Assembly: GCA_951406725.2 (NCBI GenBank)
Contig: OX597830.1
Location: 72,850,001 to 72,914,000, forward strand
Length of the DNA stretch: 64,000 nt
DNA from: Octopus vulgaris
Lineage: Eukaryota
Direction of reading: 5' to 3'
Shown: positions 5,869 through 20,068 of the stretch, in pieces
Numbering within the stretch: the stretch's first letter is position 1
Layout: each line of letters opens with the position of its first letter
Program-made: the position numbers and the translations under genes
Notes under the pieces: model-generated
Told to the model about the DNA's origin: nothing
The model's database searches: none
What the model saw: the letters and a program-made list of their open reading frames with translations, nothing else

Positions 5869-6263
5869 CTAGCAGTATCGCCCGGCGTTGCTCGGGTTTG
5901 TAAGGGAAATAACTGTATAAGCATTTTTAGAGATGTAAAGTATAATAACCATCTCAATATGGCTAACCACAAAGGAAGGTGTTACTGTAGCTTTTTACGT
6001 TCTGAGATTTAATAATACATTTTAGAGAGTTACTTCCCTTATATAATAGCAAAAAAAATGCATTAAAAATGGGGGAAAATGGTGGTAATTTTTTTTTTAA
6101 ACCGTAGACTCATCGTAGACGCGCGCTAATACCCAGAAGGGCTCGATATGAATCACGACTATAAGATACCCGCTTTTGGTTACACTGCACCGCAAAATGT
6201 GGGAGTAGTTAGGAATCTAAATCGTAGGAGACAGACACACAACTTCACTTTAATATATAAAGA
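5869..6263 (-). mobile_element. Non-autonomous Helitron
   Basis: Minus strand begins TC(TTTATATAT) and ends CTAG, with subterminal hairpin CCCGAGCAACGCCGGG ~8 nt before the end. Inserted between A and T, no TSD. Confidence 0.85.
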
Positions 6264-6287
6264 TATGTATGTTATATGTATGTATAT

Positions 6288-6708
6288 ACTCTTTTACTCT
6301 TTTTACTTGTTTCAGTCATTTGACTGCAGCCATGCTGGAGCACTGCCTTCAGTCGAGCAAATCGACCCCGGGACTTATTCTTTGCAAGCTTAGTACTTAT
6401 TCTATCGATCACCCTTGCCGAACCGCTGAGTAACGGGGATGTAAACACAGCAGTGTCAGTTGTCACGCGATGTTGAGAGGAAAGGGACAAATACAGACAC
6501 ACAAATATATACACACACACTTACATATATATATACATATATACGATGACCTTCTTTCAGTTTCCGTCTGCCAAATTCACTCATAAGGATTTGGTCGGCC
6601 CGAGGCTATAGTAGAAGACACTTGCCCAAGGTGCCACGCTGTGGGACTGAACCCGGAACCATGTGGTTGGCAAGCAAGCTACTTACCACACTGCCACTTC
6701 TAGACCTA
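6288..6708 (-). mobile_element. tRNA-derived SINE family B, full length
   Basis: Head with A/B-box-like GTGGCAGTGTGGTAAG..GGTTCAGTCCC, CORE-like ACCTTGGGCAAGT, internal (TA)/(TG) tract, tail ..GACTGAAACAAGTAAAAGAGTAAAAGAGT. Matches other copies in the window. Confidence 0.9.
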
Positions 6709-6792
6709 TATGTATATGTGTATGATATTGTTCAGTTTTATTCGAAAAGTTCTTCCCAAAAGAGAAAGTGTCGGTTTCATGTGTATGTAGTT

Positions 6793-6992
6793 ATGTATGT
6801 ATGTATGTATGTATGTATGTATGTATGTATGTGTGTGTGTATGTATGTATGTATGTATGTATGTATGTATGTATGCATGTATGTATGTATGTATGTATGT
6901 ATGTATGTATGTATGTATGCATGCATGTATGTATGTATGTATGTATGTATGTATGTATGTATGTATGTATGTATGTATGTATGAATGTATGT
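6793..6992. repeat. (TATG)n microsatellite
   Basis: Direct inspection. Confidence 0.95.
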
Positions 6993-7169
6993 ACATTGGT
7001 GTGTTTCCGAGTGTGTGTATCTGGTTGAGTACATATACTCTTGATTGTATGCTTATATGCATATAAAAATATGGACATGTATATAAATTTCTGTTAGTAG
7101 ATTTCCCATATATACGTGTATATGTGTATAAAATATGTATAGTCAGACACACACACACACACACACACT

Positions 7170-15830: not shown

Positions 15831-15950
15831 ACTTACGGCCATATCACGTTGAAAGCACCCGTTCTCGTCTGATCACCGAAGTTAAGCAACGTCGAGCCTA
15901 GTCAGTACTTAGATGGGTGACCGCTTGGGAAACCTAGGTGCAGTAAGCAT
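15831..15950 (+). pseudogene. Full-length 5S rRNA copy, probably retroposed
   Basis: 120 nt ACTTACGGCCATATCACGTTGAAAGCACCCGTTCTCGTCTGATCACCGAAGTTAAGCAACG..GATGGGTGACCGCTTGGGAA..GTAAGCAT. Terminal helix CTTAC/GTAAG; box A and box C recognisable. Solitary copy with no oligo-T terminator downstream. Confidence 0.9.
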
Positions 15951-16544: not shown

Positions 16545-16938
16545 ATTCTTTTCTACACTAGGCACAAGGCTCCAAATTTTGGGGGATGGTCCAGTCGATT
16601 ATATCAACCCCAGTACGCAACTGGTACTTAATCTATTGATCCCGAAAGGATGAAAGGCAAAATCGACCTCAGCGGAATTTGAACTCAGAACGTAACGGCA
16701 GACGAAATACCTATTTCTTTACTACCCACAAGGGGCTAAACACAGAGGGGACAAACAAGGACAAACAGATTAAGTCGATTACATCGACCTTAGTGCGTAA
16801 CTGGTACTTAATTTATCGACCCCAAAAGGATGAAATCAAAGTCGACCTCGGCGGAATTTGAACTCAGAACGTAGCGGCAGACGAAATACGGCTACGCATT
16901 TCGGCCGGCGTGCTAACGTTTCTGCCAGCTCACCGCCT
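16545..16938 (-). mobile_element. SINE family A dimer with two different tail types
   Basis: Unit 1 tail TTCTACACTAGGCACAAGG, unit 2 tail TTTCTTTACTACCCACAAGG; junction GAAATACC|TATTTC at 16711. Confidence 0.9.
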
Positions 16939-17399: not shown

Positions 17400-17743
<344 letters not shown>

Positions 17744-17943
17744 ATTAGTTGAATGAATTATTTTATTAAGAATAATTCGAAAGATAATCGATACCTGGGT
17801 AGCAATTTCACATCATAAAGAACACGGTTGAAGCTACGTTCCTAGGGCATAGACTACGTGTCTTCGTGCGGAAATTTGTATGTTTATTTTAAAATTATAA
17901 GTATATGAAAGAATGGAGTTGAACGACTAGTTAACAAATATCC

Positions 17944-18034
17944 TTTATTCTCGACATATGTTTCGAAGGCTGCATATTCCTAATTCCGAAGGAATAAGGA
18001 GTACATTATGCAGATTTCTCATCAGGAAAATCAA
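17944..18034 (-). ncRNA. Type-I hammerhead ribozyme, left arm
   Basis: Reverse complement of the motif at 18259-18349: TCATCAG at 18019-18025, GTTTC at 17960-17964. Confidence 0.8.
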
Positions 18035-18158
18035 GGAACTTATGTCGACATCAAAATGCACAAAAAACTTTTAGCTGACCGCTCTCAAGGAGCCCATGGT
18101 GATAATGAATGTCTCTTTATAAGGAATGACGTCTAGATTCTTCTACATTCAGCCACTC

Positions 18159-18177
18159 TGACGTCACTCCTTATAAA
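18159..18177 (+). promoter_or_regulatory. CRE-like TGACGTCA plus TATAAA, mirrored on - in the left arm
   Basis: TGACGTCA at 18159-18166 and TATAAA at 18172-18177, ~90 nt upstream of the hammerhead core. Motif match only. Confidence 0.4.
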
Positions 18178-18258
18178 GAGACACTCATTATCACCATGGG
18201 CTCCTTGAGAGCGGTCAGCTAAAAGTTTTTTGTGCATTTTGATGTCGACATAAGTTCC

Positions 18259-18349
18259 TTGATTTTCCTGATGAGAAATCTGCATAATGTACTCCTTTTT
18301 CCTTCGGAATTAGGAATATGCAGCCTTCGAAACATATGTCGAGAATAAA
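18259..18349 (+). ncRNA. Type-I hammerhead ribozyme, right arm
   Basis: Stem I ATTTTC/GAGAAT; core CTGATGA 18268-18274; stem II GAA..CTGCATA/TATGCAG..TTC; GAAA 18329-18332; palindromic stem III ACATATGT; predicted cut GUC after 18340; AATAAA 18344-18349. Confidence 0.82.
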
Positions 18350-18403
18350 GGATATTTGTTAACTAGTCGTTCAACTCCATTCTTTCATATATATATATAT
18401 ATA

Positions 18404-18551
18404 TAGGCTCGAAACGTTAAAGACTTGTTTCATTTATATTTCCTGAGCGCCATATTAATACAATTGTTTGTTTGTATTCCACCTGCCTTCGTCTTTTGTT
18501 TATTTCCGTAAACCTGCCTTCGTCTTTTGTCTATTTTCATAAAGCTTCCCG

Positions 18552-19869: not shown

Positions 19870-20068
19870 GGTTTCTAAAATTTGGGGGAAGGGATTAATT
19901 GAATTACATCGATCTCAATACTCAACTGATACTTATTTTATCGACAACGAAATGCTGTAATCCAATGTTGACCTCATCGAAATTTGAGCTCAGAACGTAA
20001 AGACGGACAAAATGGCATTAAGTATTTTGCCCGGCGCGGCGGTAAAGATTCTGGCCGTTCGCTGCCTT
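19870..20068 (-). mobile_element. SINE family A, diverged
   Basis: Family core visible. Confidence 0.75.

Follow-up and report, generated by a model that had tools for sequence, protein, structure and literature searches.

Two truncated Hydra-like Penelope ends lying back to back in TA repeats of Octopus vulgaris

The palindrome described here very probably arose as one insertion, in which two 5′-truncated ends of a Hydra-like Penelope element were set back to back within TA repeats, likely through two primings. Both arms consist of family sequence, stop at fixed 3′ ends of that family (+51 and +212), are bordered on both sides by (TA)n and meet at a junction that is unique. Taken alone, the locus is an ordinary side product of Penelope-like retrotransposition, left by an unusual variant family. 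Coordinates are those of the window, i.e., the whole stretch of 64,000 nucleotides that was analysed, and element positions are numbered from C17 of the hammerhead (18340 on the plus strand, 17953 on the minus strand).

The palindrome and its parent family

The original prediction had described 232-bp arms with about three mismatches and a shared set of motifs, all of which we recovered. The inverted-repeat arms (17902-18133 and 18160-18391) pair with three mismatches (17995/18298, 18109/18184 and 18126/18167) and 26 nt between them, and each contains GACGTCA, TATAAA (18172 on the plus strand, 18121 on the minus strand), CTGATGA (18268 plus, 18025 minus), GAAA, ACATATGT, GTC and AATAAA, the last at 18344 in the right arm, 3 nt past the predicted cut at 18340. 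The octamer TGACGTCA is complete in the right arm only, the left arm holding seven of its eight letters. Copies of the element elsewhere extend through the 26-nt "spacer" and into the 160 nt left of 17902, from which we take the true insertion to be 17741-18391, flanked by (TA)n on both sides. The 26 nt between the arms are thus part of the right copy, whose family sequence starts at 18132; likewise, the TA sequence expected beyond each arm does follow the right one, whereas the left copy continues 160 nt past 17902 to 17741 before (TA)54 is reached. The features are as follows, the likely start at 18106 being inferred from the truncation hot spot of family copies.

17633-17740, no strand: (TA)54 target repeat, left flank
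17741-18133, minus: left copy, element −180 to +212, stopping at the "long" end of the family; 93-97% identity to six family copies
17741-17901, minus: tail of ~160 nt, left arm only (tandem copies L113, L115, L116, L117, L119)
17941-18037, minus: predicted type I hammerhead of the left arm, C17 at 17953
18106-18133, minus: left promoter-like stretch, with a 7-of-8 CRE, TATAAA at 18121-18116 and likely start at 18106
18132-18133, no strand: inversion junction with 2-nt microhomology; the 23-mer across it has one genome match
18132-18391, plus: right copy, element −208 to +51, stopping at the "short" end of the family; 98-99% identity to six family copies
18159-18187, plus: CRE octamer at 18159-18166, TATAAA at 18172-18177, Inr-like CTCATT, likely start at 18187
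18256-18352, plus: predicted type I hammerhead of the right arm, C17 at 18340, with core 18268-18274, stem II 18275-18328, GAAA 18329-18332 and palindromic stem III 18332-18339
18392-18404, no strand: (TA)n target repeat, right flank

Judged from their longer relatives, both arms are the 5′-truncated 3′ ends of a 3.5-kb Penelope-like element encoding a reverse transcriptase (RT) and, at the C terminus, a GIY-YIG endonuclease. In the genome searched (2.8 Gb in 227 contigs), the right arm matched 40 scored places, out of 1,954 candidates, at 98-100% identity; most of these matches extend upstream of the arm, "spacer" included, and downstream of the arm many of them run into the 160 nt also found left of 17902. 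The longest copies reach an ORF of ~880 codons that encodes a YRDD reverse transcriptase, then Asn-rich sequence and finally a YIG endonuclease at the C terminus, and RT and YIG motifs lie upstream of the arm in L031, L113-L119 and L253-L256. The original prediction was right about a Penelope-like pseudo-LTR. None of the copies read retains an intact ORF, the longest open frames measuring 833 and 804 aa. In L113, L115, L116, L117 and L119 the tail passes straight into the 5′ UTR and the start codon of the ORF, an arrangement that corresponds, by its sequence, to the partial-tandem form of Penelope-like elements. The family therefore displays what characterizes endonuclease-bearing (EN+) Penelope-like elements, namely one ORF joining a Penelope-type RT to GIY-YIG (by motifs and 27 homologs) and a hammerhead pseudo-LTR with partial tandem and inverted 5′-truncated copies. 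Searches of Pfam and of PDB sequences gave no significant RT or GIY-YIG match, hence the domains are identified by their motifs and by their resemblance to the Hydra alignment in print; a single-sequence structure prediction of the endonuclease reached a pLDDT of 39, too low to be of use.

The endonuclease is encoded at at least 150 places (79-100% identity), and a 30-mer of the hammerhead has 719 genome matches, set against the single match of the palindrome junction. A hand count of the first 100 hammerhead matches listed gave 21 back-to-back pairs, 16 of them less than 300 bp apart. Some insertions recur close by, in two or three copies each, as in L329, L330 and L331 (G000:C7, 99.99-100.18 Mb) and likewise in L028/L029 and L180/L181, which likely reflects local segmental duplication. 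A few kb from another copy of the family, L033 carries at 5989-7072 (minus strand) an unrelated second Penelope-like fragment; its endonuclease shows a Cys linker together with a CCHH-like pattern. Within the window no host coding ORF is evident; a near-complete 5S rRNA match (15831-15949, plus strand, 100.7 bits) is its sole Rfam match at the gathering score, and a dispersed SINE-like repeat occupies 16588-16900 and 19893-20015 in three copies that resemble one another at 73-84%.

Junction geometry and the origin of the palindrome

The sister palindromes all have breakpoints other than that at 18132-18133; their outer ends follow a common rule. Among 77 distinct back-to-back junctions in L070-L199, both 3′ ends could be classified in 60 and 17 were left unclassed; 57 of the 60 join a short to a long end, and the three exceptions comprise two short-short and one long-long junction. 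The short end lies ~50-75 nt past the cut site and the long end 212 nt past it, the commonest 3′ ends being +212, +57 and +74, and (TA)≥4 occurs within 24 nt after 169 of 192 3′ ends compared with 5% of window positions. The family tail thus bounded measures ~155 nt, against the 30-40 of the literature on EN+ Penelope-like elements. In 32 of 37 pairs the arms are nearer to each other than to other copies, and in the five exceptions one arm appears short within the compared stretch. Both arms of 17741-18391 share a variant found in only 6 of 99 arms, which together with the likeness within pairs points to one source, and their three differences are rare private states (found in 1 of 141, 2 of 101 and 1 of 93 arms). 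Since the right arm alone has −208 to −181 and the left alone +52 to +212, the fold-back of a single cDNA cannot give this geometry. The palindrome had also been claimed to be young; with the rate of 0.0036 changes per site per million years given in the available text of PMC13282606, the three differences in 232 positions correspond, very roughly, to ~2 million years, in agreement with that claim.

The back-to-back arrangement itself is already known for Penelope-like elements, as far as the accessible parts of three papers go: inverted 5′-truncated copies with a one-sided tail have been described (PMC8557442), opposite-strand hammerhead pairs 100-700 bp apart come from truncated copies (PMC4209133), and a Penelope-like RT uses two internal start sites that bound the tail, with both strands cleaved in AT-rich targets (PMC11167929). 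We infer an extension of the two-start-site model in the latter text, whereby the GIY-YIG domain would cut both strands of (TA)n and each DNA end would prime a cDNA, one 3′-OH priming at +51 to +74, in the AT-rich stretch that lies ~50-75 nt beyond the hammerhead, and the second at +212. The two cDNAs would then run through the uncut hammerhead and beyond the start site, halting at −208 and −180, and their far ends would be joined by the 2-nt microhomology. As both arms begin upstream of the likely start, their template was a longer read-through RNA, in all likelihood the one bearing the ORF. Junctions repeatedly contain short palindromes, as in L155 and L164. In L022, near 1755-1780, a copy folds back at a palindromic hexamer that is also present at the 18132 junction. 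The near-strict pairing of short with long ends constrains how inverted pseudo-LTRs and their tails form.

The palindrome had originally been regarded as a non-autonomous, retrozyme-like unit, and it is true that each arm keeps a CRE, a TATA-like box, a likely start and an intact hammerhead core, that short copies beginning at −153 show pseudo-LTR-started RNA to be retrotransposed, and that animal retrozymes are reported, in the available part of 10.64898/2026.07.22.740005, to derive from pseudo-LTRs. An independently replicating palindromic unit should nevertheless recur as such, and the junction is found once in the genome, every sister palindrome differs in its breakpoints, both arms begin upstream of the likely start, and the locus lacks the head-to-tail repeats of one fixed hammerhead unit, amplified as such, that define non-LTR retrozymes. 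This interpretation is largely refuted and we consider it very improbable; the palindromic copy codes for nothing and is most likely a dead end. It has its promoter-like motifs and hammerheads by descent from the pseudo-LTR.

Two further explanations seem to us extremely improbable. Were the palindrome a fold-back read or an assembly artefact, its arms would not be expected to differ at three positions, each a rare private state, nor to carry sequence absent from each other between different flanks, nor to obey in their asymmetry the rule followed by 57 of 60 family junctions. No contig from four public runs spans the junction; this gap proves nothing, as the insertion may be private or filtered, and contigs can show neither ends nor strand. 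Alternatively, a TA hot spot might have received two separate insertions, or undergone inversion or repair at a later time; TA repeats do attract the family, and three or more pieces indeed lie together in L100, L101 and L102. Neither TA nor host sequence is found at the junction, however, the arms share a rare variant, and independence predicts short-long pairs in about half of the cases instead of 57 of 60. A single insertion made by two primings accounts for these observations and is the reading that we retain.

Hammerhead, likely RNA start and the first base of sister copies

Each arm carries a CUGAUGA/GAAA/GUC core with helices I-III, and stems I and II fold as originally proposed (z −2.4 and −2.6). 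Core and stem III hardly vary among 30 copies that had been chosen with a core-like pattern, and over 29 distinct rows two compensatory series were found in family copies, as the original prediction required: one stem II pair occurs as G-C, G-U or A-U (13, 6 and 5 rows) and a second as C-G, U-G or U-A (19, 2 and 7), although this covariation amounts to two well-supported events in related sequences. The Rfam search proposed alongside failed to return any hammerhead match at the gathering score or at E ≤ 10, the 54-nt stem II likely exceeding the Rfam hammerhead models; the ribozyme call therefore rests on core motif, folding and covariation. Matches to Rfam miRNA families merely reflect the hairpin and were discarded. 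Stem III of the monomer is predicted to be open (pair probability 0.01) and two copies are predicted to co-fold into an active dimer, in keeping with the dimer-type hammerhead that had been suggested. As the opposite-strand copies are complementary, the two arms could dimerise only as separately made RNAs, and a read-through transcript is predicted to form a hairpin of about −414 kcal/mol hiding both hammerheads; as first suggested, such dsRNA might feed ADAR or Dicer.

The promoter-like motifs proposed for the arms, a CRE and TATAAA, are found in both. The CRE is kept across subfamilies, TGACGTCA itself being present in most copies of the older ones, where a TATA-like box stands ~28 nt before the A of CTCATT; in the youngest subfamily, to which the palindrome belongs, a 13-nt deletion brings this box to 15 nt. 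Arms starting exactly at that A (−153) number 15 in a sample of 215 drawn from pattern matches, many of which required the −135 to −115 stretch, against a mean of 0.65 per position in −250 to −135. A G precedes 9 of these 15 arms compared with 27 of 177 starting elsewhere, and reverse transcription across a cap is marked by an additional G at the truncation peak. A search for a G before the −153 start gave 53 matches; of the 30 examined, all were flagged as truncated by script and 29 by eye, L290 being a point change, and many of the G's are also shared with the partner arm. Copies thus pile up at a likely capped start at −153, which would place the starts of this locus, likely, at 18187 (plus strand) and 18106 (minus strand). 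Should the arms fire, the predicted 5′ fragment would be ~153 nt long, in place of the ~140-nt self-cleaving RNAs first proposed. The idea that the youngest subfamily starts instead near −137 did not hold, only three arms beginning there against 15 at −153. We also rejected AATAAA as an obligatory polyA signal, given that it forms part of stem I, reads AGTAAA in some copies and is passed well beyond by the templates; a sigma-70 scan stayed at chance level and has no bearing on a eukaryote.

Arguing against cut RNA as a template, the majority of arms extend over the cut site, and in a first sample 20 arms had their start between −30 and +60, none of them at +1. On the other side, a search for a base other than C before +1 gave 89 matches. 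Inspection of 75 arms in 70 loci flagged 30 as truncated; of these 30, seven proved on visual check to be point variants and three represented one duplicated event, leaving 21. The same rules applied to a control at +4 (66 matches, 30 examined, 12 flagged) left seven events, and the scaled comparison of ~25 with 15 is a modest excess. More telling are 62 insertions in which each arm starts no more than a few bases from the cut, compared with 19 in a like-built control ~35 nt upstream. Both arms begin exactly at +1, with one to five extra letters between them, in five among the 50 listed of these 62 insertions, and other symmetric non-palindromic joins, judged by eye, amount to one (at +4) among the 50 listed and none in the control. 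L335, L336, L338, L339 and L341 are tiny two-armed insertions of this kind, both arms of which start from the first base past the predicted cut. The excess at +1 has to be read in the light of palindromes at or beside the cut site, which favour microhomology joins there, of junctions nearer to the priming site, which may be commoner anyway, and of the RT, which could stall at the helix junction without cleavage.

By these counts, the pile-up at the predicted ribozyme cut is weaker than that at the −153 start. We lean somewhat towards hammerhead cleavage taking place in vivo, and the sister insertions likely record both the RNA start and the predicted hammerhead cut in the living animal. It is tempting to read the hundreds of two-armed insertions of the family as a fossil 5′ RACE that would combine a capped start at −153, in vivo cleavage with the cut RNA serving as template, obligatory paired priming 155 nt apart and linker-free (TA)n targeting; we regard the chances of this composite reading as evenly balanced.

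A Hydra-like protein and its relatives

The protein shares with the Hydra clade, as described in the available text of PMC8557442, a single ORF with RT and C-terminal GIY-YIG, RW and DKT motifs, the absence of CCHH, CxxC and CxH motifs, a canonical hammerhead near the 3′ end, (TA)n targets and tandem or inverted copies, and the alignment excerpts from the supplement resemble it. The RWK-type and DKT motifs read RIRWL and SDKT, K being replaced by L; CxxC and CxH lie around the conserved E and N, and (TA)n insertion is that of the 169 of 192 3′ ends given above. It differs from the clade in its length (~3.5 kb, against less than 3 kb for Hydra), in reading RWL for RWK, and in having an Asn/Ser-rich stretch of ~150 aa where the CxCx5C linker is described. 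This linker between RT and endonuclease is absent from all four long frames and from L113, and is present in all 22 homologs that reach the endonuclease, the other five of 27 being too short. In an RT tree (26 unnamed rows, midpoint root, four rows left out) the family falls together with P0001, P0002 and P0008 at 100/100, and since P0001 and P0002 both carry the linker, its loss is the likelier reading. The element, as its motifs and tree position suggest, is Penelope-like, operates in the manner of Hydra and is likely of Hydra descent; lacking the linker, it is filed as Hydra-like and not as a typical member. Identity with Hydra-1_Obim, an octopus family in the portion seen of the PMC8557442 supplement, was ruled out by the N-terminal protein sequence and by differences in the hammerhead. 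The zinc-finger linker is credited with (TA)n targeting, and the targeting kept intact here argues that it is not required for it. P0008 and P0026, relatives found in Argonauta and Octopus bimaculoides, bear in their source records the name "GATA zinc finger domain-containing protein 14-like"; they are apparently Penelope-like RT fragments that were misannotated.

Like Poseidon PAc of Anolis carolinensis, as far as it is presented in the accessible text of PMC11167929, the family has two internal priming sites bounding its tail, AT-rich targets and cDNA made mostly from uncut RNA. The tail measures ~155 nt here and 30-40 in PAc, both ends here fall on TA-like RNA letters matching the target while priming in PAc needs no homology, the hammerhead precedes the start codon by ~270 nt instead of overlapping it, and some genomic copies begin at the predicted cut, where no RNA ends were found in PAc. 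With Penelope of Drosophila virilis, going by parts of PMC2377424 and PMC4209133, it shares inverted terminal copies of variable length, a promoter in the pseudo-LTR and a hammerhead with a small palindromic helix III; that element has a TATA-less internal promoter and a 34-bp tail, in contrast to the CRE and TATA-like box upstream of the likely start in the octopus family. Animal non-LTR retrozymes (10.64898/2026.07.22.740005, available part) resemble the palindrome in being non-coding, in their type I hammerhead and in their pseudo-LTR ancestry, and differ as head-to-tail repeats of a fixed unit from what is a one-off back-to-back truncation product. The literature searched, with most subscription papers, Repbase and Dfam outside its scope, describes neither this family nor the loss of the linker nor genomic copies that begin at the cut site of a Penelope hammerhead. 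The ~155-nt tail, the Hydra-like protein without linker and the copy pile-ups at the start and at the predicted cut therefore go beyond that literature as far as its available text extends. The accessible text of PMC13282606 reports 31 recently active Penelope-like families in an octopus, among which the present one may figure.

The only A>G difference in the possible RNA contigs, at 18193, also occurs in a DNA run and is the commonest base of the family, so that A-to-I editing was ruled out at this position. Heavy A-to-I editing is characteristic of this animal group. Scaling the 21 pairs per 100 matches listed to all 719 gives roughly 150 young double-hammerhead inverted repeats in the genome, all of them potential sources of dsRNA.
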